Shown here in pieces: positions 1,320 to 15,252 of a stretch of DNA of 20,000 nucleotides. Source of the stretch: an uncultured virus (IMG/VR IMGVR_UViG_3300030339_000028). Taxonomy: Duplodnaviria; Heunggongvirae; Uroviricota; Caudoviricetes. The DNA is taken from IMG/VR virus record IMGVR_UViG_3300030339_000028, one strand, 5' to 3'. The notes beneath the pieces are model-generated. The model was not told the origin of the DNA. It ran no database searches and worked only from the letters and a program-made list of their open reading frames with translations. Each line of letters opens with the position of its first letter. Positions within the stretch are counted from its first letter, which is position 1. The translations under genes and the position numbers were made by a program.

Positions 1320-2249
1320 CTAAAAATTTAAAAGTTCATTAACAATGTTTGAAGCTTGCTCCTGAGACATGCTCCCAGGATCATCAGTAATATCTACTCT
1401 AATAGCATCCTTACCCCGGAACTTTAAATCTGCGACTAATTCGTTAGCAGCAATTAAAGCCTGAGATTCCTGTCCATCAAAGCAGACAAAAATACGTTTA
1501 AAGAAACCTGCAATCAATCTTACCTGTTTGGGCTTATATTTAATCCCTGAGGTAGCACAACTTTGATCACCAAATCTCCATACATCGGTAGGTCCTTCAA
1601 CAATAATACCTTGATCACCCCATGCAGTTTGATCCCCATACAAGATGTCTTTGTGGGAAATCTTTTCTCTAGATTCTGGGCAAGCCATATACTTGTAAGG
1701 ACTTTTACCAGTAATGTCTCTAGAGTCAAAACTAACTATGTCATCATCCCAGATAAATGGAATGATAATCCTGTGTTTGTAATCTAGTTGTTTGCCTTCA
1801 GTCTTAAGTAAGCTAATAGGACCAGACCCTAACAGTTTCCATTTCTGTTCTAGCATAGCAGGATCATAACCTCTTTTCTTGAGATACTTAATATGATTAA
1901 AAGCCATCGGAGAACAGTTGCTTGGAAGTTTTAGTATTTTTTGCCCTACTTTAATTACCTTTTCAGACTTAGGTATAAATATAGAAGATCCGTATTGCTT
2001 TATAATTGCATAGACTTCTCGTTCTGATAGATTTAAAAGTTTCACTAAGGTTGAGGCTGTGGGATGAAATCCACACCGCCAACAAGTAAAGAAGTCTCCT
2101 TGTAGGTTATACCCTAAGTGATAACCATCGTGTCCAGAACCACTAGAGCACCAAGGGCAGGGTGAGTTGACCCATCCGTCCCTGGTGTGCTTGTGGCCCT
2201 CAGATTTATGATCTACACTATAATCATCATAAATTTGTTCGATGTCCAT
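1320..2249 (-). CDS. DNA primase-like protein (N-terminal Zn finger plus TOPRIM)
   Basis: CPWC...CWRC zinc ribbon, RIIIPF, IIVEGPTD TOPRIM glutamate motif and VCFDG. Likely start is MDIEQ at 2249 (TAATG overlap with the upstream stop) rather than 2276. Confidence 0.8.
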   Translation of the reverse strand: MDIEQIYDDYSVDHKSEGHKHTRDGWVNSPCPWCSSGSGHDGYHLGYNLQGDFFTCWRCGFHPTASTLVKLLNLSEREVYAIIKQYGSSIFIPKSEKVIKVGQKILKLPSNCSPMAFNHIKYLKKRGYDPAMLEQKWKLLGSGPISLLKTEGKQLDYKHRIIIPFIWDDDIVSFDSRDITGKSPYKYMACPESREKISHKDILYGDQTAWGDQGIIVEGPTDVWRFGDQSCATSGIKYKPKQVRLIAGFFKRIFVCFDGQESQALIAANELVADLKFRGKDAIRVDITDDPGSMSQEQASNIVNELLNF

Positions 2250-2449
2250 TAGGCAAGTGTGAACGATAATCCCCAACCAAACTCTTTAAGAATCTCTCTG
2301 TGTACATCAGTAATGGTAATTGCACCTAACTCCTTTAATTTTTTCAAGTTGTAGATTTTTGATCGGGTAATAAACATTGTCTTTGTCTTCCCGTCATAAC
2401 GAGTAACACAATAGAACTTTTTTACGAATTCTGATACTTTCTTTTTCAT
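2249..2449 (-). CDS. Hypothetical protein (66 aa)
   Basis: ORF abutting neighbours on both sides. Confidence 0.65.
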   Translation of the reverse strand: MKKKVSEFVKKFYCVTRYDGKTKTMFITRSKIYNLKKLKELGAITITDVHREILKEFGWGLSFTLA

Positions 2450-3553: not shown

Positions 3554-4126
3554 TTAATTTGGTTTTTGATTTGTAATTTCTCTTTTTATGAGAATCATTT
3601 GTCTTTTTATTTCTATGAATTCTTTATAATTTTCTTTTAAAATAAAAGTAGGTATTTTATAAATAGATGCAATATAATTGTCTGGTAACAAGGCAACCCT
3701 TATTCTACTACGTTCTATAGATTTTTCAATATTAGAACTTCGATATATTGCACCTCTTATTTTGATTTTTTCAATATTTTTTCTTCTGTAATTTTTATTA
3801 TGGGAAGATATTTTCTCTGGATGAAGAATTCTATAATCTTTGGATTTTTTTAAATAAAAAGCAGGATCTTTATCATAGTTAACCCTCCAGGTGTCTCTTT
3901 TATGTTGTTTTTCTTTTTCTCTATATTCTTCATTTAAGAGGTACTTTTCCCTTTTTTTATTACCTATTTTTTCTTTATTAAAAAAACGATACTCCTTTGA
4001 CGCACAATTTTCACAAGATCTGCAATAAGAGTAGGTGCATGAATTACCTTTATTACCTTTTATTATTCTAAAATCAGATAAAGGTTTTTCAATAACACAC
4101 TTCTTACAAATCTTAGTCTCTTCCAT
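3554..4126 (-). CDS. Basic CxxC/CxxC zinc-ribbon phage protein resembling the N-terminus of HNH/EndoVII-type proteins; no nuclease motif seen
   Basis: KICKKC...YCRSC followed by K/R/Y-rich helical repeats; very AT-rich. Confidence 0.65.
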   Translation of the reverse strand: MEETKICKKCVIEKPLSDFRIIKGNKGNSCTYSYCRSCENCASKEYRFFNKEKIGNKKREKYLLNEEYREKEKQHKRDTWRVNYDKDPAFYLKKSKDYRILHPEKISSHNKNYRRKNIEKIKIRGAIYRSSNIEKSIERSRIRVALLPDNYIASIYKIPTFILKENYKEFIEIKRQMILIKREITNQKPN

Positions 4127-6536: not shown

Positions 6537-9254
6537 TTATTTTTGGTAAGATTTAATAAGTTCCATTAGTAAGGATTCTGCAGGTGTACGTTTACCATCT
6601 AATATACCGTCTACAATTTGACGTTTCTTATCTAGTAAAGCTGCAATCTTTTCTTCAATTGTACCTGCTGCAATCAATTTATAATTGGTACAGGCATTCT
6701 TTTGTCCAATCCTGTGTATTCTGTCGTCTGCTTGATCATGTACACCTGGGGTGTATTGATATTCAATTGTTGCTGTGGACCAAGCTGCGGTTAATGTTAA
6801 ACCTACTCCTGCAGGATTTCCAGCAGCATCTAACATCCCAACAAATAATTTAATTCTAACGTCTGTCTGAAATGATGTTACTGCTTTGTCTCTGTTTGAT
6901 TGATTAACACCTCCATCATACCTAACAGATATCTTTGGAAATGCTGTCATTATAGCATCAATTGTCGCTGTATGAGTACAAAACAATACAAGCTTCTCAC
7001 CTGAGTCAATAAACTCTTCTATCCAAGATATAACATTAGCCATTTTACCTTTTACAGCCAATTGTTTTAAAGCATTAATCTGACCTAATGTTTCTGCATT
7101 GGAAGCTCTAATTGCTGCGGCAGTACCTTTCGTTTCACTTACCCATTTAATAAAGTTTCGTTCTGCATAAACATACTCAGCCCAATTGTCTAACTCAATA
7201 GGTACAAAAGCTGTCTGTTTGTCTGGCAAATCTTTTGCAACATTTACCTTCAGTCTTCTTAACATGACAGTACTTGTCAGTTTCCTGTGCAACTCTTCAA
7301 CATTAGAAGCACCTTGTACATTTGTACCCCATATAGATTTCTTAGCATCACAATAACGCTTCGTAAATACAAAATAAGAACCTAATACAGTAGGATCTAT
7401 CATTGATACAGCATTGTATATTTCAATCGGTCTGTTAAGTACAGGAGTACCAGATAAACCAATAATGTGTTCTACAACTTTACCTAATTTCTTAGCAGCC
7501 TTTGTTCTTTTAGCAGCACCGTTTTTAATACAATGTACCTCATCCATTATTAGGATCTTTGGCTTAATCTTAATCAAATAAGGTACCCAAGCTTCTAAAA
7601 TGTCATAATTAAGAATAAGAATCTTTCCAGTCGTTTTGTATGGAGTTCTTCCTGTTAATACTTCTGCCTGAGAATTAGGTATCCAATTAAATGTTTCTCT
7701 TAGCCAGTTAAGTTTTAAAGAAGCAGGAACGACAATGATTGCTGTCCGAAGTTCTTTATGCAGTTGTAGGTAAGCTAAAGCCTGGACAGTATTATGTGTC
7801 AATATACAATGTTCTGTGACATATAAATGATCCTTTGTGTCTACAGAAATGCAGAAACATAAATCTGTTTTTACATACTCTATTTTTGTGATAGCTCTTG
7901 CAGGACTGTATTTTACTTTCTCTTTACAAGAGGTTCTTTTTCTTATGCAAAAGAAAGGATTATTTCCTTTCGGCATCATTATTGTGAGTGAATGAGCTAT
8001 CTTTCCTATTTTCTTGTCTCCATTTGGACAAACTTGTATTCCAGGATAGGATTTCTTTCTTGCAATACCTCCAAAAGACTCAACTAAAAAAACAACATCG
8101 TCACATAATTGTTCCGAAACAGACGTAAATTGAATAACTCCAGATTTTAAACTTGCATAACCGTCTGTATCAAGAAGTCCTCTTAATAGTTCAGCTCTTT
8201 GTTCTATAGAACCAAATTTATAATCATCAGGAATATACTTGTATTCTGAAGTAACATTTAATCTATACTTTCTGATAATGTTTTTTATTTCATTAATTTT
8301 AGACTTGTCTTTTGGATTTGTATGCACTACATGGAAATCACAATTCTCACCTTTGTCTTTTTTCAATGTGTACCCCAATGGAAGCAGTTCGTTTCCAACT
8401 CTTTCAATAATATCAGAATCTGTGTTAGAAAAACAAACTCCTTTAGAAATACCTCCGTCACCTAATAAAGCACCCATTGTGTATGGAGGAATAATTAATT
8501 TCCTTTCTGGAAAGTCAATTGCATCAGAAAGCATAGGTATAAAGACTAAATTAGCCTTAGATTTCTTATCTGATTTTAATTGCATTTTCATAATTTCTTT
8601 TAATGGAAAAGTCTTACTAGGAAATCCCATCCATTTGTCTCTAGGAGAGTAAATCGTCCATAAATGGTCTTCACAACATTCTACAGAAGTTTTATCAGAA
8701 AATGTAACCTTATACACTTTCTTATTTCCTTTATTGTAGATTCCTTTTAACTTATGAGATATTCCATCAGATCCAAATACTTGATCTTTTAAAGAAAGAT
8801 TACCTATCTGCTTCCATCCAGAAGGTGTTAGTACTTTGGTGTACCAAGGTTGTGCTTTACCCAAGCCCATCTCATCTGCAATTAAACATCTACCATTCTT
8901 AGCATCAATAAAACTAACACCAATATTTTGAAACGGTCTTAACGTCCCTTTTAATCCTGGTATTTTAATTTCCTTGACATCTGTGATAGATACTTTTGAG
9001 CGATCTAGGATAGCTTGTAAATTAGAATCAAGTTTAAATCCCCATTCTGCTAGAAGTTCCAATGAAGGAACATCTACAGGACATGTCCAGTATTTACCTT
9101 CTGGATAGTATTTTCGTTCCCTTAAACCTCGTACCCTATTAAGGTCTTCTTGGTTGTAGGGAAACTCAATTCTACAAACAGGTGTACCGTTTTTAAGCTC
9201 TGCTAGTTTCACAGCTTTTTCAGCGTTACTTTTTGTAGGAGTACTGTTATACAT
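6537..9254 (-). CDS. SNF2-family (SMARCAL1/HARP-like) helicase precursor containing an intein
   Basis: LRPFQ Q-motif, IADEMGLGK|T Walker A split by the intein, VVPASLKLNW, MDEVH, LSGTP, GVGLTL and QADDRIHRIGQ; N-terminal HARP-like segment. Spliced product is about 550 aa. Confidence 0.92.
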   Translation of the reverse strand: MYNSTPTKSNAEKAVKLAELKNGTPVCRIEFPYNQEDLNRVRGLRERKYYPEGKYWTCPVDVPSLELLAEWGFKLDSNLQAILDRSKVSITDVKEIKIPGLKGTLRPFQNIGVSFIDAKNGRCLIADEMGLGKAQPWYTKVLTPSGWKQIGNLSLKDQVFGSDGISHKLKGIYNKGNKKVYKVTFSDKTSVECCEDHLWTIYSPRDKWMGFPSKTFPLKEIMKMQLKSDKKSKANLVFIPMLSDAIDFPERKLIIPPYTMGALLGDGGISKGVCFSNTDSDIIERVGNELLPLGYTLKKDKGENCDFHVVHTNPKDKSKINEIKNIIRKYRLNVTSEYKYIPDDYKFGSIEQRAELLRGLLDTDGYASLKSGVIQFTSVSEQLCDDVVFLVESFGGIARKKSYPGIQVCPNGDKKIGKIAHSLTIMMPKGNNPFFCIRKRTSCKEKVKYSPARAITKIEYVKTDLCFCISVDTKDHLYVTEHCILTHNTVQALAYLQLHKELRTAIIVVPASLKLNWLRETFNWIPNSQAEVLTGRTPYKTTGKILILNYDILEAWVPYLIKIKPKILIMDEVHCIKNGAAKRTKAAKKLGKVVEHIIGLSGTPVLNRPIEIYNAVSMIDPTVLGSYFVFTKRYCDAKKSIWGTNVQGASNVEELHRKLTSTVMLRRLKVNVAKDLPDKQTAFVPIELDNWAEYVYAERNFIKWVSETKGTAAAIRASNAETLGQINALKQLAVKGKMANVISWIEEFIDSGEKLVLFCTHTATIDAIMTAFPKISVRYDGGVNQSNRDKAVTSFQTDVRIKLFVGMLDAAGNPAGVGLTLTAAWSTATIEYQYTPGVHDQADDRIHRIGQKNACTNYKLIAAGTIEEKIAALLDKKRQIVDGILDGKRTPAESLLMELIKSYQK
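7791..8855 (-). mobile_element. Intein (355 aa, Ala1-type, probably class 3) with LAGLIDADG homing endonuclease
   Basis: Residues 134-488. Starts AQPWYTKVLTPSG and ends HCILTHN|T. Block B CCEDHLW, block F CFCISVD; LAGLIDADG motifs MGALLGDG and LRGLLDTDG. Confidence 0.92.
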
Positions 9255-9269
9255 TTTTATAAAATTAGT

Positions 9270-9304
9270 GTTGAATTCAGCAGAAAAACGTGCTGAAATT
9301 TAAC
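9270..9304. promoter_or_regulatory. Inverted repeat upstream of the helicase, with the same GAATTCAGC core as 3254-3320
   Basis: GTTGAATTCAGCA-N8-TGCTGAAATTTAAC, adjacent to three CTTGTTA repeats (9304-9329). Confidence 0.45.
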
Positions 9305-9344
9305 TTGTTATTCCTTGTTAAACTTGTTATTGTATTCTAACTTT

Positions 9345-9512
9345 CTACCATTTAAAATAATAGGTTCTATTACTTGCATTGTACCAGAAATAGTTAGTAT
9401 TCTTCATGGAAGGGTAATACCTTTGATATCTTCTTTTACCATTGTTGTAATCTTTACTTGAGACACAGGAAAAAAGAAACAAAAATAAAATCAAGATGAT
9501 ACATTTTTTCAT
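9345..9512 (-). CDS. Small putative lipoprotein (55 aa; not in ORF track)
   Basis: MKKCIILILFLFLFS-C-VSSKDYNNG...: basic N-terminus, hydrophobic stretch, lipobox LFSC; Tyr/Asn-rich mature part. Confidence 0.65.
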   Translation of the reverse strand: MKKCIILILFLFLFSCVSSKDYNNGKRRYQRYYPSMKNTNYFWYNASNRTYYFKW

Positions 9513-9526
9513 TTTCTAAATATTAA

Positions 9527-9787
9527 TTATTGAACACATATCGCAGGACGTATAAGTTTACCGCCGCGTATTAAAATATTCTCTTCAGTCAATTCATAAA
9601 CAAGTACAACACCTGAGATGTCATATACATTGCATGAACATTTCTCAAACAAATCAGAAACATACATTGCACCTGATAATGTCTGATTTCTATAGCATCC
9701 TTCATCTGCATATCTGATGCAGCAATGAGCAACAGGATTCTCTCCTGGAGTAGGATCCCATACTGTGGCAAATGTTTCTCTTGACAT
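9527..9787 (-). CDS. Hypothetical protein (86 aa)
   Basis: Packed ORF. Confidence 0.65.
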   Translation of the reverse strand: MSRETFATVWDPTPGENPVAHCCIRYADEGCYRNQTLSGAMYVSDLFEKCSCNVYDISGVVLVYELTEENILIRGGKLIRPAICVQ

Positions 9788-9789
9788 AA

Positions 9790-9921
9790 TCAGAATAGGT
9801 TAATGATAAATTTAACAACTAAAGGAATCAATGTCTCTCCTGCCATTATCACAAAAAGTACAACAATAGCCAAGAACATAATTCCTACATATTTCCAAAA
9901 TAATTTAATGTCGTTTCTCAT
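9790..9921 (-). CDS. Small membrane protein (43 aa; not in ORF track)
   Basis: MRNDIKLFWKYVGIMFLAIVVLFVIMAGETLIPLVVKFIINLF*; TAATG overlap with the upstream stop. Confidence 0.65.
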   Translation of the reverse strand: MRNDIKLFWKYVGIMFLAIVVLFVIMAGETLIPLVVKFIINLF

Positions 9922-10202
9922 TAGTCTTGAGTATATCGTAAAACACAAACTAAACCAACTTTTGCATCATGAGGACTGTTATCAAAATCTTCGTCTTCCT
10001 CATCTCTTTGAGAAGGCATTCCTAATCCTGATCTGCTGTAAGCTTCTTTGATAGGAATACATGTAACTACTTCTGCAATAGGAACTAATTGTTCAGTGTT
10101 ATGATAGTCTCCATAATTGGAACTAGACCAAACATCAATATCTCCAAAGTTTCTTCTGATGTCTTTTAACTCATCAATCAATTCTGTAATAGTTAGTGTC
10201 AT
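9921..10202 (-). CDS. Hypothetical acidic protein (93 aa)
   Basis: Likely start is MTLTITELIDELKD at 10202, which avoids overlap with 10213..10446. Confidence 0.7.
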   Translation of the reverse strand: MTLTITELIDELKDIRRNFGDIDVWSSSNYGDYHNTEQLVPIAEVVTCIPIKEAYSRSGLGMPSQRDEEDEDFDNSPHDAKVGLVCVLRYTQD

Positions 10203-10212
10203 AATATTAGTT

Positions 10213-10446
10213 TTAATTATGTTGATTAATACAGTTTTGAATTCTCTTTGTAAAAATAACATCTGAAGGATATGCTCCGTTAGAGTCAAGCACACCGATG
10301 TTCTTTAGATAAGTTTCAATTGAGGACTGCAAATGTAATTCATTCCAGTCTAATGTGTCTTTATTGTCTAACCAGTATAATGTATTTATCAAACAGCATA
10401 CAATGGTAGTGACACCTACGGAGAGAACTAATTTCTTTTTAGCCAT
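10213..10446 (-). CDS. Hypothetical protein (77 aa)
   Basis: Start preceded by the AAAAACTTACAAAA motif. Confidence 0.7.
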   Translation of the reverse strand: MAKKKLVLSVGVTTIVCCLINTLYWLDNKDTLDWNELHLQSSIETYLKNIGVLDSNGAYPSDVIFTKRIQNCINQHN

Positions 10447-10475
10447 TTTTGTAAGTTTTTATCAATTTATACCGA

Positions 10476-10505
10476 CAAAACCCCCTACCCTTTCGAGTAG
10501 GAGGC
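10476..10505 (-). terminator. Terminator/pause-like hairpin with GAAA tetraloop
   Basis: GCCTCCTACTC-GAAA-GGGTAGGGGGT followed by TTTG (short U tract). Confidence 0.55.
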
Positions 10506-10544
10506 AAACCATAAAGGAAAACTTACGGAAAACCGTTATGGTTT
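10506..10544 (-). ncRNA. Hairpin displaying a loop antisense to the early-gene start motif
   Basis: AAACCATAA-C-GG-[TTTTCCGTAAGTTTT]-CC-T-TTATGGTTT. Loop segment CGTAAGTTTT is the perfect complement of AAAACTTACG. Confidence 0.55.
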
Positions 10545-10733
10545 AATGTCTAATTTCTTTTCGTACAAGTAAATAATGTCTCCTATAGATACAAGTAAAT
10601 ACTCATAATCGTCAGCCATGTCGGCAATGTACTCTTCTGCTTCTTCAAAAGTCTCAAAAGCAGTCTCATCATTTAATGAGTCCCATACTTTTTTCCAACC
10701 TAAGTCATCTTCGAGAATTGTTATTTTGTTCAT
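10536..10733 (-). CDS. Small, strongly acidic hypothetical protein (65 aa)
   Basis: D/E-rich; FETFEEAEEYI motif. Confidence 0.7.
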   Translation of the reverse strand: MNKITILEDDLGWKKVWDSLNDETAFETFEEAEEYIADMADDYEYLLVSIGDIIYLYEKKLDIKP

Positions 10734-10999
10734 ACCTTTATTATTGAGGGTTTACAATCAAAGTAAATAGCAATACCTGGAGGTGTTCTAAATCCTCCGT
10801 CAGTGTATTCCACTTTAAGTACATGAGGTAATTTTTCAACCTTAGCTTCTCTCTTTTTGTGAGCTGTGCCGTAAGGAGTCAATTTTAACCTGTACCTGTC
10901 TGGATGTTTCTTTGTCGGACATTTGTCCACATACGAGGTAGAGAAATTAGTCTCTAGGAGACCTTCAATCGCTATTCTGATAGGATTAATGTTTGCCAT
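10730..10999 (-). CDS. Hypothetical protein (89 aa)
   Basis: ATGA overlap with the downstream gene. Confidence 0.7.
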   Translation of the reverse strand: MANINPIRIAIEGLLETNFSTSYVDKCPTKKHPDRYRLKLTPYGTAHKKREAKVEKLPHVLKVEYTDGGFRTPPGIAIYFDCKPSIIKV

Positions 11000-11001
11000 A
11001 A

Positions 11002-11193
11002 TTATTGAGGTTTTTCACAAATGATGTAATCAACGTCTAACTCCCCGCAAAGATCGTCTCCTGTTAGTTTTGCATCTGCATAAGATCCAAACCATGCAGT
11101 ATTACAATCATCTAGCATTAAAGGCTCTGCCTGAAATTGCTCGGGAGTTTCATTAAATTGGATAATAAAGTAAGATCTGCTCATAGTCACCAT
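11002..11193 (-). CDS. Small acidic hypothetical protein (60-63 aa)
   Basis: Packed ORF; start could be 11184. Confidence 0.65.
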   Translation of the reverse strand: MVTMSRSYFIIQFNETPEQFQAEPLMLDDCNTAWFGSYADAKLTGDDLCGELDVDYIICEKPQ

Positions 11194-11459
11194 CCTTTAT
11201 TTAAAATGTGTGTCTCAATAATTACTCTAGTCTTACATGGAGTTCCGTCTGTGCTGAGTAAGTCATAATCAAAATGATCGGGATTGTACACATCTGCAGT
11301 CCAATTCCATCCTTTGTTAATCTTAAATGATTGTTCGATAGCAAGTAAAGCAGTTTTTCGGGAAGAGAAGACACCGTATGTCTCCCACCACACAAACCCT
11401 TCTGTAGAAGAAGTTCTCCTCATGGAGGATTTCACAACATAGATTTTCTGTCGTTTCAT
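11187..11459 (-). CDS. Hypothetical protein (90 aa)
   Basis: KIYVV...YGVFSSRKTA motif common in small phage proteins; start preceded by AAACTTACTGAAT. Confidence 0.7.
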   Translation of the reverse strand: MKRQKIYVVKSSMRRTSSTEGFVWWETYGVFSSRKTALLAIEQSFKINKGWNWTADVYNPDHFDYDLLSTDGTPCKTRVIIETHILNKGW

Positions 11460-11481
11460 ATTCAGTAAGTTTATAAAAATA

Positions 11482-11512
11482 CAAAGTAATTAATAAGTTT
11501 TAGAACTCCAAA
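11482..11512 (-). promoter_or_regulatory. Probable Bacteroidota promoter
   Basis: TTTG (11512-11509) - N19 - TTACTTTG (11489-11482); one mismatch to TAnnTTTG. Confidence 0.45.
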
Positions 11513-11530
11513 CTGATTGCAAAAATAAAT

Positions 11531-11641
11531 TTAGAGTAAAGTGTCTACGTTATGGAACGCAAGAATAAAGAACACTCCAAAGATAAATACCGTAACAAGT
11601 GCGGCAATAACCAATTTACAATAAAAGTCTTTTGTTTTCAT
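11531..11641 (-). CDS. Small single-TM membrane protein (36 aa; not in ORF track)
   Basis: MKTKDFYCKLVIAALVTVFIFGVFFILAFHNVDTLL*. Confidence 0.6.
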   Translation of the reverse strand: MKTKDFYCKLVIAALVTVFIFGVFFILAFHNVDTLL

Positions 11642-11647
11642 AACGGT

Positions 11648-11884
11648 TTAGTTTTTCTTGATGTACACAACAGTCTCTTCAGACAAGCTGTAAGCATTCT
11701 CAAAAAATAGAGATACAGTATCTCCTTGATAAGTGCAATTTACCTGATGATCGTTCAGTACCTCAACTTTGTAAGGTCTTTCGAAGGTAGATTCTTTTTC
11801 TTGAGCAGGAGGTAGAGCCTCTTTTTTGCAGCATAACAAACCTGCAATTAGGATCAGAGTAAATAGTTTAGTTCCCATCATCAT
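11648..11884 (-). CDS. Putative lipoprotein (about 76-78 aa)
   Basis: MGTKLFTLILIAGLLC-CKKE resembles a Bacteroidota lipoprotein signal; start is one of three tandem ATGs (11884/11881/11878). Confidence 0.6.
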   Translation of the reverse strand: MMMGTKLFTLILIAGLLCCKKEALPPAQEKESTFERPYKVEVLNDHQVNCTYQGDTVSLFFENAYSLSEETVVYIKKN

Positions 11885-12086
11885 CCCTCCCAAACTCTTC
11901 TTCGTCTATCTCATCAAATGTCCTAACGATAGACATGATTTTGTCTGTAAACCCAATAATACCTTCCCATTGCAACCAAGCATCTAAAATTTCCTCGGTT
12001 GTCATGTTCTCAATAGTCTCATCGGAATGATTCTCTTGCAAGTCATCCAATATGCCTAAGCTAAAAGCCTTTTCAATGTTTGTCAT
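11868..12086 (-). CDS. Small acidic hypothetical protein (72 aa)
   Basis: D/E-rich, contains AWLQWEGIIG; start carries the full 21-bp motif. Confidence 0.75.
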   Translation of the reverse strand: MTNIEKAFSLGILDDLQENHSDETIENMTTEEILDAWLQWEGIIGFTDKIMSIVRTFDEIDEEEFGRDDDGN

Positions 12087-12101
12087 TTTCGTAAGTTTTA
12101 A
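12081..12101 (-). repeat. Early start motif copy TTAAAACTTACGAAAATGACA
   Basis: Identical 21-mer at 14045-14065 and 15232-15252. Confidence 0.9.
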
Positions 12102-12286: not shown

Positions 12287-12946
12287 CTATTTCTTTGATG
12301 TTTTTGCTTCAACCTTTTCTTCTTTCTTAACAGCTTGTTCTTTCTTGTCAAGTACGGCTGGAGTCTTTGCAGCACGTTTCCGAGCGATGTTCATATAAAT
12401 CGCAATTCTCGGGGTAATAAACTTCATGTCAGTAACACCTTTCAATCCGTATCCGGCAACGTAAGCAGCAATCGTTTCTTTGCTGTCCTCTTTCCAACCT
12501 TGTGCATGACAAAACTCACCGAGCTTTTCCATCGAAGTAATACTGTTGATGTATTTACCAGCATTATCAGCTTTCTTTGCTTTAACCGTCTTGCCTTCTT
12601 TCACAGCCTTGTCAGCCTTTGCAGCTTTAGCCTTAGCAATTGCAGCCATAACCCCTTTCGGTGTTTCTTTCGTAGCTTCTTTAGCCGAATTCACTTTGTC
12701 TTTTAACTCCGGATTAACCTTTGCAGCTTTTTCGCTTGTCTGTGCTACAATAACCCGTTTCCGCAGTTGTGAACCTGTTTCACCTTCTTTTGCGATAACA
12801 ACTTTGTGTTCAACTTCTGCTTTTGGAGCAGTAGTCACTTTCTTTGCTTGTTTTGCTTCCAATTCAATGGCAGCTTCGATAGCCCTTTGTTCAGCACTGA
12901 CGTTCAGAACCTTCTGAAGATTCTTTTTCGATTTCTTGTTTTTCAT
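12287..12946 (-). CDS. Lys/Ala-rich basic protein (219 aa), paralog of 14653..15237
   Basis: Histone H1-like K/A composition plus the shared domain AYVAGYGLKGVTDMKFITPRIAIYMNIA. Confidence 0.8.
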   Translation of the reverse strand: MKNKKSKKNLQKVLNVSAEQRAIEAAIELEAKQAKKVTTAPKAEVEHKVVIAKEGETGSQLRKRVIVAQTSEKAAKVNPELKDKVNSAKEATKETPKGVMAAIAKAKAAKADKAVKEGKTVKAKKADNAGKYINSITSMEKLGEFCHAQGWKEDSKETIAAYVAGYGLKGVTDMKFITPRIAIYMNIARKRAAKTPAVLDKKEQAVKKEEKVEAKTSKK

Positions 12947-12983
12947 TCTATAAGTTTTTTTTGATTACAGCAATATTGCTGAG

Positions 12984-13029
12984 TTCTGGAGGAGGGACTC
13001 GAACCCTCCCTAACTAGAACCGTTCCAGA
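12984..13029 (-). ncRNA. tRNA-like minihelix (acceptor stem plus T-arm, no anticodon arm)
   Basis: TCTGGA-ACGGTTCTAGTTAG-GGAGGG-TTCGAGT-CCCTCC-TCCAGA-A; canonical T-loop; 6+6 = 12 coaxial bp. Confidence 0.65.
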
Positions 13030-13030
13030 T

Positions 13031-13192
13031 TTAATTTGTACTAACTTGAGATTCTTTAATCAACTTCTTGTTTGTTTTGGTAGCAACCTCAGGGGTTATT
13101 TCCTGTACTGCTTTCTTGTCAGCCGCCTTGTTCAAATGTCCACAAACAATAGCAACCTTCTCATCCATAGTCAATTCTTTTTGTTTTACCAT
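13031..13192 (-). CDS. Hypothetical basic protein (53 aa)
   Basis: Likely start is MVKQKELT at 13192, downstream of the promoter at 13235-13266. Confidence 0.65.
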   Translation of the reverse strand: MVKQKELTMDEKVAIVCGHLNKAADKKAVQEITPEVATKTNKKLIKESQVSTN

Positions 13193-13338: not shown

Positions 13339-13614
13339 TTAAAACCAATCTTGGTATATTATTTGTCCTCCGTATCTGTTATTGACACTTTCAATAATCT
13401 TAAAACCTATAAAATGCTGAACATTTTCTAATTGGGCAGCTCTAAGCTCTATATCAACAACTTGATTAAATAGAGATTTTCTTGCATCTAATACAAATAC
13501 ACCGTCAGTGCCTAAAGCATCTATTGGGTATTTTTCTTCTTCACTAAATATTGGAGGAATAGAACCTTCCACATACCCAGTACTCATTTTTAAAAATTGA
13601 CAGTACCTTTTCAT
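13339..13614 (-). CDS. Hypothetical protein (91 aa)
   Basis: Contains LGTDGVFVLDAR; start preceded by AAAAAACTTACAAG; lies immediately downstream of the hammerhead. Confidence 0.75.
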   Translation of the reverse strand: MKRYCQFLKMSTGYVEGSIPPIFSEEEKYPIDALGTDGVFVLDARKSLFNQVVDIELRAAQLENVQHFIGFKIIESVNNRYGGQIIYQDWF

Positions 13615-13632
13615 CTTGTAAGTTTTTTAAAT

Positions 13633-13879: not shown

Positions 13880-14050
13880 TTAATAACCTAACCATTCATA
13901 AAGACCTTTTTCTGTGATAATTGTAAGGTCTACTAATTCTACCTCCCACACATCGTGGATAGTATCGTACACAGGGCCTTCAACAAAATTACCGTTCACT
14001 ACAAATCCGTGATCTTGACAGATTTTCTTTAACTTTTCTATTGATGTCAT
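13880..14050 (-). CDS. Hypothetical protein (56 aa)
   Basis: Start is MTSIEKLKK at 14050, marked by the 21-bp motif; ends LYEWLGY. Confidence 0.75.
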   Translation of the reverse strand: MTSIEKLKKICQDHGFVVNGNFVEGPVYDTIHDVWEVELVDLTIITEKGLYEWLGY

Positions 14051-14065
14051 TTTCGTAAGTTTTAA
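14045..14065 (-). repeat. Early start motif copy TTAAAACTTACGAAAATGACA
   Basis: Identical to 12081-12101 and 15232-15252. Confidence 0.9.
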
Positions 14066-14131: not shown

Positions 14132-14360
14132 AGGTATCTGCAAAAGAATGCAAATTATCTTTAGGTAAACAAAACTCTGGTAGATTTGATTCTGAGCACT
14201 AGGATTAGGCCTAAAACGAGCAAAAAGGTTCTGCTAAAGAGCACAAAAAGTGCCTCAAAGCAGCATAACACGAATTCGCGCCTGTCATACACTATACTGT
14301 GAAGGCAGTAGTTAGTATTAAAACACTATTCTCCTGCTGAAAACAGCTTGTTTTAAAGCT

Positions 14361-14420
14361 AAAAAAGCTGATGGCATACATTGCCTTATTATTGCATGGG
14401 GCAATGCAATACACATCAGC
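14361..14420 (-). terminator. Terminator-like long hairpin (T3)
   Basis: GCTGATG...CATTGCC/GGCAATG...CATCAGC followed by TTTTTT. Confidence 0.5.
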
Positions 14421-14476
14421 AGTATAATCCACGTTCAAATAGCATCAAAACAGCCTATTCTAGCCGATAACCCCAT

Positions 14477-14538
14477 AAAAAAAGCCATACGTTACCGTAT
14501 AGCCATAAAAAAGCTGCAAAGTATAAACCTTGCAGCTT
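14477..14538 (-). terminator. Two tandem intrinsic terminators (T1, T2)
   Basis: AAGCTGCAA-loop-TTGCAGCTT-TTTT, then GCTATACG-GTAA-CGTATGGC-TTTTTTT. Confidence 0.75.
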
Positions 14539-14546
14539 GTGAGCAG

Positions 14547-14663
14547 TTAACCTAAATTGTTAAATATGGTGCAGCATATAAGCGCCGCAATGTAACAAAC
14601 ACCAGCAATAACAAAAATCGCATTCGCTATGCTGTCCTTTTGGGTAGTAGTGTTATTTTGCAT
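14547..14663 (-). CDS. Small single-TM membrane protein (38 aa)
   Basis: MQNNTTTQKDSIANAIFVIAGVCYIAALICCTIFNNLG*; start overlaps the end of the upstream gene. Confidence 0.6.
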   Translation of the reverse strand: MQNNTTTQKDSIANAIFVIAGVCYIAALICCTIFNNLG

Positions 14664-15237
14664 CGTCGGCAGTTTTAACAGCCTCAGCAGCCGGTTCGTT
14701 AATAACAGCAGGCACAACGGCAGCAGCTTGCAAGCCTTTAAGCAAATCCAGCGTCGTTGCATGCTTTAAGTAAATTGTAATACGCCCAGCAATAAAAGTC
14801 AAATCCGTTACATTTTTGTAACCATAAGCAGTAATAAACGCCTTCGCAATCTCAGCCTGTGTGGCTTTGTTTTTAAGCAGCATAGCAGCCAAAAGATGCA
14901 TATTTTTAACCCCTTCGTATATGCTACCGTATTTAGCAGCTTTCGTGGCATTAGTGGAGCTCTTTTTGTCCTTTTTTGCAGCTTTTTTAACCGCTGCCGT
15001 TTTCAGCATATTTGTTAATTTGCGTTCCGTAACCAACAAAGCAGCTTTTTTACTACGTTCAGGGGCGGCAGCTAATTTAGCCAATCTAGCCGTTTCGCGC
15101 TCCTCAGTAAGTTTTTTTAATACGTTGGCAGTTGCTACCGCACCAGCTTTGTTTGAACTTGCAATACCGTTAGAAACGTTTGCGTTATTAACTGTACCAA
15201 TAACCAAATTTTTAGCATTTTTTCTACTTTTTGTCAT
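14653..15237 (-). CDS. Lys/Ala-rich basic protein (194 aa), first gene of the early arm
   Basis: K/A-rich; domain AFITAYGYKNVTDLTFIAGRITIYLKHA is homologous to 12287..12946; start carries the 21-bp motif. Confidence 0.8.
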   Translation of the reverse strand: MTKSRKNAKNLVIGTVNNANVSNGIASSNKAGAVATANVLKKLTEERETARLAKLAAAPERSKKAALLVTERKLTNMLKTAAVKKAAKKDKKSSTNATKAAKYGSIYEGVKNMHLLAAMLLKNKATQAEIAKAFITAYGYKNVTDLTFIAGRITIYLKHATTLDLLKGLQAAAVVPAVINEPAAEAVKTADDAK

Positions 15238-15252
15238 TTTCGTAAGTTTTAA
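15232..15252 (-). repeat. Early start motif copy TTAAAACTTACGAAAATGACA
   Basis: Identical to 12081-12101 and 14045-14065. Confidence 0.9.

Follow-up and report, generated by a model that had tools for sequence, protein, structure and literature searches.

The early mRNA strand of a phage that probably infects a member of the Bacteroidota encodes a small hairpin whose 15-nt loop is antisense to a leader found at the starts of the same phage's early genes. The hairpin lies at positions 10506-10544, minus strand, of the 20,000-nt stretch of DNA analyzed here (the window). Comparison across five phage records indicates that it is very probably a real, conserved, and strand-specific RNA element. 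It likely works, as a candidate riboregulator that we term an anti-leader, by pairing with an early leader, and it probably switches early-gene translation off via this base pairing. The reading we favor, with a probability of roughly 0.45, is that the loop acts primarily in cis, masking the next start and repressing translation from it; we infer both the pairing and the repression in vivo from the arrangement of the sequence.

The window is phage DNA and matches virus record G001 (30.8 kb), which is its own record. Read from about 16300 down to 1, the minus strand encodes a row of small ORFs followed by replication genes, specifically a SNF2 helicase (6537-9254), a primase (1320-2276), and a replication initiator (7-894). 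From 16330 onward, the plus strand encodes both terminase subunits, small and large. The majority of the genes in the window lack a Shine-Dalgarno sequence and have A-rich leaders. Relatives of the terminase in genome contigs fall in Bacteroidota MAGs in four of four cases, so the host is probably a member of this phylum. Bacteroidota do not rely on Shine-Dalgarno pairing for start selection, and to our knowledge the way in which their phages program early expression is poorly understood. Contigs from peat metagenomes contain the window stretch. A blastn search of positions 9000-12000 against phage GenBank records returned no match, and ARAGORN predicted no tRNA in the window.

Relatives were obtained via the helicase. 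A search with the single protein recovered only one relative, so alignment-based searches were required, and these provided 80 metagenome loci and 80 viral loci. The comparison rests on five records: G001 (the window), G002 (L308), G010 (L417), G011 (L463), and G012 (L467). Helicases across the phages that carry the element are only 44-61% identical. The helicase in the window is long (905 aa versus 531-713 aa in relatives), and the relatives align with residues 4-134 and 489-904 alone. The additional segment, approximately residues 135-488, contains a LAGLIDADG_3 domain (residues 351-401) and looks like an intein or homing-endonuclease insertion.

The early genes share a 15-nt start leader without a Shine-Dalgarno sequence, AAAACUUAC-R-AAAA-AUG. 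We identified AAAACTTAC 3-5 nt upstream of the ATG at five minus-strand starts (15237, 14050, 13614, 12086, and 10446), one-letter variants at 12946, 11459, and 6530, and a further exact copy inside an ORF (15107-15115). The sole copy on the plus strand of the window is the loop itself. The leader AAAACTTACGAAAATG, with a 10-nt complement in the loop, precedes ORF 15237..14653 (leader at 15235-15250), the ATG at 14050 (14048-14063), and ORF 12086..11868 (12084-12099). ORF 13614..13339 has the leader AAAACTTACAAGATG (13612-13626), with a 9-nt complement, and variant leaders precede ORF 12946..12287 (AAAACTTATAGAATG, 12944-12958) and ORF 11459..11187 (TAAACTTACTGAATATG, 11457-11473); all are on the minus strand. 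In a more distant relative, L334, the variant TAACTWAAAACYTTAYARAA-ATG occurs at nearly every short junction between successive early ORFs, with the upstream stop codon inside it, and this pattern argues that the leader motif is a signal that acts at the translation level rather than as a promoter. Pairing of the motif with 16S rRNA in the manner of a Shine-Dalgarno sequence was considered and dropped, as no part of the 16S rRNA from one related Bacteroidota MAG is complementary to the motif (best duplex, -8.6 kcal/mol).

Several other sequences resemble parts of the leader or lie close to it. Near position 968 of L409, the 16S rRNA of a Bacteroidota MAG, GGAACCUUACCUGG resembles the motif in the sense orientation rather than as its complement. 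The likeness is closest to the L334 variant AAAACCUUAU and to one arm of a palindrome in L249, and it may be a coincidence. That palindrome (L249, 50-100) is perfect, reads ACTTACCTCC-T-GGAGGTAAGT, and lies 14 nt upstream of a start with a leader. A leader-like copy makes up the 5' arm of the palindrome, and the complement GUAAGU is found in the 3' arm. The canonical element of L249 may sit past the end of the contig, because the contig stops 1.3 kb upstream of the helicase. In G002, a second GTAAGTTTT occurs on the early strand of the divergent region before the first early gene (L309, 2350-2385), beside a small AAGUUU/AAACUU hairpin and some 165 nt ahead of the first gene that has a leader. 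It is not the full loop, and its occurrence is roughly the chance expectation in 74 kb. A tRNA-like minihelix, with an acceptor-like stem and a 7-bp T arm with the loop GGUUCGAnUC, is found about 40 nt upstream of the leaders of homologous genes in the window (12975-13035, minus strand, preceding ORF 12946..12287) and in G002 (L308, 1650-1715, preceding ORF 1747..2385). ARAGORN calls no tRNA in it and Rfam gives just an 11.9-bit match to a tmRNA 3' end. T-arm-like pieces also occur upstream of leader-bearing starts in L274 and L350. The minihelix may be an RNA-processing signal or the remnant of an attachment site.

In the hairpin, the 5' arm AAACCAUAA (10544-10536) and the 3' arm UUAUGGUUU (10514-10506) belong to a stem of 9-10 bp plus 2 bp on the minus strand, that of the early mRNA. 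A C/U mismatch separates the 9-bp stem from the 2-bp part, in which GG (10534-10533) pairs with CC (10517-10516). The loop, UUUUCCGUAAGUUUU (10532-10518), is antisense to the early leader AAAACUUAC(G/A)AAAA: its UUUU complements the AAAA preceding the AUG, and its GUAAGUUUU pairs with AAAACUUAC. Within the loop, CGUAAGUUUU is perfectly complementary over 10 nt to AAAACUUACG, which is present at three starts (15237, 14050, and 12086), where the loop C pairs with the G after the motif, and GUAAGUUUU is the perfect 9-nt complement of the copy at 10459-10451. Overall, the loop can form 9-10 bp with five starts in the window. The structure described here has a predicted energy of -9.0 kcal/mol. The free fold (-9.2 kcal/mol) gains a 4-bp inner helix, ACGG/CCGU, which is specific to the window and ties up the CCGU of the loop.

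A preliminary description of this site, made from the letters and a list of ORFs, had proposed the stem, its 15-nt loop, their coordinates, and the minus (mRNA) strand, together with perfect pairing to three gene starts and to the copy at 10451-10459, and all of these proved correct on the sequence. It had also placed the stop codon of the upstream gene inside the 5' arm. The TAA of the upstream early ORF (10536..10733, minus strand; 65 aa, no Pfam or PHROG family) is indeed at 10538-10536, and the arrangement recurs: in five of five records the upstream stop codon ends 1-14 nt 5' of the loop, in the 5' arm or at its base. A further proposal, that the same stretch is complementary to the start region of the ORF beginning at 11641, holds as a match and fails as a signal. 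The 11-nt complementarity of CAUAACGGUUU with AAACCGUUAUG is real, but we treat it as chance because the 5' arm is not conserved in any relative and matches of such length are common here (53 positions in this AT-rich window match a single start region at k=10).

Directly 3' of the loop hairpin is a second, GC-rich hairpin with a GAAA tetraloop, CCUCCUACUC-GAAA-GGGUAGGGGG-UUUU (10505-10477, minus strand; -18.2 kcal/mol), as the preliminary description had it. Its stem (10505-10481) is the GC-rich stem-loop expected of an intrinsic (Rho-independent) terminator, and equivalent GC-rich hairpins with other stems lie 1-8 nt 3' of the loop hairpin in all five records. In each record only 3-4 U follow, and then G or other bases, versus a U tract of about 7-9 nt in intrinsic terminators; the hairpin at 10505-10477 is not among the 11 sites found by a consensus terminator scan of the window. 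The short U tract suggests that the terminator-like hairpin is probably weak or leaky, so that read-through RNA, and hence cis control, would be relevant. Beyond it, 58 nt past the loop, is the candidate cis target, namely the leader AAAACUUAC (10459-10451) with AAAA and the next ATG (10444-10459 in all, minus strand). This start opens a downstream early ORF of 77 aa (10213..10446, minus strand) for which no family was found.

The loop is present once per record in five of five records, within the leader cluster and on the same strand as the leaders. Strict copies of the leader signal, AAAACTTAC-N2-6-ATG, number 5, 7, 9, 5, and 6 in G001, G002, G010, G011, and G012, respectively, with none on the other strand. 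The preliminary description had named a lack of loop conservation in relatives as grounds for refuting it; the loop UUUUCCGUAAGUUUU turned out to be identical in four records (G001, G010, G011, and G012) and to differ in G002 by one inserted U. The five stems around it have almost no sequence in common, yet all pair: 9-10 bp plus 2 bp in the window, 9 bp including three G-U pairs in G002, 6 bp plus 6 bp in L417, 9 bp plus 2 bp plus 2 bp in L463, and 7 bp plus 4 bp in L467. Stems were assessed by constrained folds of each sequence, since MAFFT left the five stems out of register. When flanks were shuffled, 3, 204, 42, 0, and 0 per 1000 were equally stable (the first value is for the window), with a Fisher-combined p of 6e-7. 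In all five records a leader-bearing start, with the motif or a G-U-compatible variant, lies 58-76 nt 3' of the loop, and the loop can form 9-10 contiguous pairs with this adjacent downstream initiation region, in one case including G-U.

The genes on either side of the element show no homology between the window and G002. Conservation of the RNA element therefore does not depend on the neighboring genes, and its 5' arm has been rebuilt in different coding ends. Among the 160 helicase-related loci, four have at least four motif starts and exactly those four have the loop, while the other 156 have neither. Because the five records form one clade, this co-occurrence does not represent five independent events. 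An nhmmer profile built from the element and applied to 2.04 Mb of loci recovered the five known copies and terminator-only fragments, with nothing further, and a 27-base pattern searched over IMG/VR returned G010, G011, and G012 only. Exact scans of viral contigs yielded single matches at chance level, at least 119 for the 16-nt leader and at least 120 for the 15-nt loop; of 248 loci compared by blastn, none was related to the window except pieces of its own record. We also considered whether the loop tracks the commonest leader variant of each phage. This fits the window (G after ACUUAC) and G002 (A, with the inserted U) and fails in G010, G011, and G012; the base 5' of the core agrees with the commonest leader variant in the window and G002 only.

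Two more sequences have related features. One peat contig matches the window at 10495-10532 only; its loop letters are the same, its flanks are unlike those of the window, and its 3' arm has three inserted letters. The match tables suggest that this contig has a sixth stem enclosing the loop. L334 lends support to the pairing model in that it has a 15-of-16 complement of its own leader variant, predicted to fold onto the next start. There (3704-3870), a 25-codon hydrophobic ORF has its stop codon within the complement, and the predicted pairing spans two small hairpins, one with a GAAA loop and no U run. An opposite-strand ORF of 98 aa also begins at this place, and the reading of the L334 locus is not secure.

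The conserved geometry suggests how the element could act in cis. The loop would base-pair with the leader and ribosome access would be blocked. The best-supported target would be the start of the next gene, 58-76 nt downstream, on read-through transcripts; because the terminator lies between the loop and this target, cis regulation would be limited to read-through RNA. The stem would be melted by ribosomes completing the upstream ORF, with an effect on the pairing. In all five records, a ribosome positioned at that ORF's stop codon would cover the 5' arm, so upstream translation should, on this geometry, change the state of the element. Whole modules were folded from the 5' arm to just beyond the next ATG. 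In three of the five (G002, L417, and L463), the minimum-energy fold has the loop paired with the next start around the terminator. The window favors the local hairpin slightly (-36.0 versus -34.2 kcal/mol for the cis fold, a difference of +1.8). Evidence against the cis reading comes from L467, where the local hairpin is better by 6.7 kcal/mol (-41.5 versus -34.8), and from the weakness of the AU-rich loop:leader duplexes (-8.6 to -10.9 kcal/mol, where background 26-nt windows have their first percentile at -10.5). The core adjoins the 3' arm, with 0-3 nt between them. A stacked-helix pseudoknot that keeps both helices, with UUUUCC as the linker, is sterically conceivable.

A different possibility is that the terminated transcript, or a fragment of about 70-80 nt, acts in trans as an sRNA derived from the mRNA 3' end and silences the 5-9 early leaders. 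We regard trans action as the primary mode as possible but rather doubtful. Cis and trans action would account equally well for the layout, for the presence of one copy only, and for a loop and leader that do not vary. The preliminary description had already pointed to the layout of a 3'-UTR-derived sRNA (stop codon, hairpin, terminator), and this layout, with hairpin and terminator at the end of an ORF, recurs in five of five records. Both features of such sRNAs that can be assessed on the sequence are present: location at an mRNA 3' end with a shared terminator, and a conserved seed complementary to targets. The seed would be displayed in the loop, and each genome has a single copy of it for many candidate targets. 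Loop and leader are both invariant in phages whose helicases have diverged as far as noted above, and a network of one regulator and many targets would freeze both. The L417 loop even retains G despite a U in the adjacent leader variant, as if bound to the target consensus. However, the pairing comprises just 9-10 AU-rich bp with energies inside the background tail, the distant analogue in L334 has no U run past its anti-motif, and the next start is in every case motif-bearing and similarly spaced, a regularity that action purely in trans does not require. An unlikely but not negligible alternative is that the element is a structural or protein-binding feature of the mRNA 3' end, with a role in stability, processing, or termination and a loop kept constant by a protein that recognizes it, and that leader complementarity is a by-product, for example of an inverted leader cassette. 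The position of the hairpin directly against a terminator-like hairpin in all five records would suit this, as would the unremarkable duplex energies and the peat contigs in which terminator and leader cassettes form mosaic junctions similar to those described for PeSLs (PMC2839356). By-product status is harder to reconcile with a conserved 15-nt loop that contains the perfect complement of the genome's commonest start 9-mer, for which the chance is about 3e-5 to 8e-5, and whose remaining UUUU also complements the AAAA before the ATG. Pfam searches at E<=1 of 14 flanking early ORFs revealed nothing credible and no candidate binding protein.

The remaining explanations fare worse. Coincidence, in which an ordinary pre-terminator hairpin happens to have a loop that matches the leader, would account for the weak statistics within the window: a 9-mer complementary to three or more start regions turns up in 244 of 300 random 20-kb sequences generated under a Markov-1 model, so the antisense match in the window alone is not significant. 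The match is far beyond chance because it is conserved in four further phage records, and we give coincidence almost no credence given a single-copy loop that stays invariant while the stems change in five records and that is perfectly associated with leader-rich loci. The preliminary description had also offered a plus-strand alternative, in which the loop displays the motif itself as a decoy for an RNA-binding protein. Such an RNA decoy, or a DNA-level element in which the inverted leader copy is a protein site, is very improbable. The plus strand does read as the motif at 10518-10532, and the 9-bp stem of the window, being purely Watson-Crick, could form on either strand. In the relatives, however, the stems need G-U pairs (three of nine in the G002 stem, with others in L417 and L467) that become A/C mismatches on the opposite strand. 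The terminator stems also contain G-U pairs, and U runs occur on the early strand only; the decoy is rejected on these grounds. Furthermore, all 32 strict leader copies across the five records are on one strand, and the plus-strand motif copy is followed by no ORF in G002 or L463 and by nothing more than ATG-GTT-TAA in the window.

Database comparison did not place the element in a described family. No Rfam family reached its gathering threshold in the window. The match to ncr952 (RF02453) scored 30.3 bits against a threshold of 100 and did not recur in the loci of three relatives, which gave no Rfam match at E<=1. Among the matches listed by full-text searches of open-access papers and bioRxiv, none described the element.

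Known systems resemble it in parts. The c4 RNA is excised by RNase P, its loops pair with the ribosome-binding region of a downstream gene, and two loops acting on one target region set immunity. The account of the P1/P7 immI region in PMC8198154 (citing Citron & Schuster 1990) describes c4 as an antisense RNA that comes from the operon it controls and is needed for full ant repression. The candidate described here would likewise be a phage antisense RNA from the same operon as its target. In contrast to c4, which lies at the 5' end of its operon, the present element abuts a terminator where an ORF ends (3' end). It also has one 15-nt loop and a class-wide leader with 5-9 copies per genome, occurs in Shine-Dalgarno-poor phages linked to Bacteroidota, and has no sequence or Rfam relationship to c4. 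Bacterial sRNAs derived from 3' UTRs include CpxQ, SroC, and DapZ. As in these, the putative seed lies just past the stop codon and upstream of the mRNA's own intrinsic terminator, but it is in a hairpin loop rather than single stranded, and the targets would be the phage's own early leaders. At the replicase start of RNA phage MS2, long-range masking is combined with translational coupling. The present proposal is similar in that an upstream segment would pair with the next initiation region and ribosomes on the upstream ORF would change that pairing; it differs in that the masking segment is just past the stop codon, in a conserved hairpin of its own, with a terminator-like hairpin inside the long-range helix.

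Protein-based and cassette-based parallels come from T4-type phages. According to PMC3014915, T4 RegB cleaves early translation initiation regions at GGAG, and RegA is a repressor of many mRNAs. Here, too, an initiation signal shared by early mRNAs would be the basis for inactivation of a whole class, but RegB and RegA are proteins, whereas an RNA loop is the candidate factor in the present case and would act on a signal other than a Shine-Dalgarno sequence. The PeSLs of T4-type phages, as described in PMC2839356, are repeated stem-loop terminator cassettes that flank small early ORFans and form mosaic junctions. The peat contigs are similar in that they join the same terminator to other contexts. 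PeSLs, in that description, have sigma-70 promoters and no antisense loop, whereas no canonical promoter was recognized here and each genome has one anti-leader hairpin, not one per cassette. None of these systems (c4, 3'-UTR sRNAs, MS2, RegA/RegB, or PeSL) shares sequence or exact architecture with the element.

The significance of the arrangement is that a phage clade has a fixed 15-nt leader at its early genes together with exactly one conserved complement of that leader. Leader and loop thus provide a concrete sequence pair for mutational study of class-wide translation control by RNA, and the same pair can be used to ask what recognizes the leader. A broader view, which we put forward as speculation, is an RNA-only class switch: one invariant 15-nt loop would pair with the Shine-Dalgarno-less leader of all immediate-early genes. 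Such a many-target relationship would freeze regulator and leader together, and the loop would time the shut-off or the coupling of early translation in hosts where Shine-Dalgarno pairing is not used. If true, the leader AAAACUUAC-R-AAAA would be a new kind of translation signal, the element would be an RNA counterpart of T4 RegA/RegB, and the pair could be put to use in Bacteroidota genetics as a compact, portable switch of translation.

Terminators and leaders also occur together as cassettes with features of their own. In several of these, GGTATAAA or TATAAA follows the terminator U run, a few bases before the leader (window 10466-10473; L308 2445-2452 and 4391-4396; L249 705-712; L274 at about 8255). 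TATAAA may be a -10-like element for some polymerase of other specificity. As a conventional promoter it was rejected: it is missing in L417, L463, and L467, and a sigma-70 scan found 25 sites with 25.9 expected. The combined pattern of terminator tail, TATAAA, and motif occurs in 19 stretches, four of them in known relatives (three, overlapping, in G002 and one in the record behind L249). The other 15 were set aside; 12 come from a single unrelated coding cluster, and those in L310, L314, and L315 are not the element. Peat contigs place the terminator in other contexts, at window positions 10467-10512, 12101, and 9907-10218. One junction, seen in two metagenome runs, fuses 12101 to 10477 via 10 other letters, and another contig has 23 other letters in place of 9907-10218, so that the terminator-leader cassettes look like mosaic recombination junctions. 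On the minus strand at 14150-14650, about 400 nt have no convincing ORF and include two tandem terminator-like hairpins, at 14538-14511 and 14504-14483.
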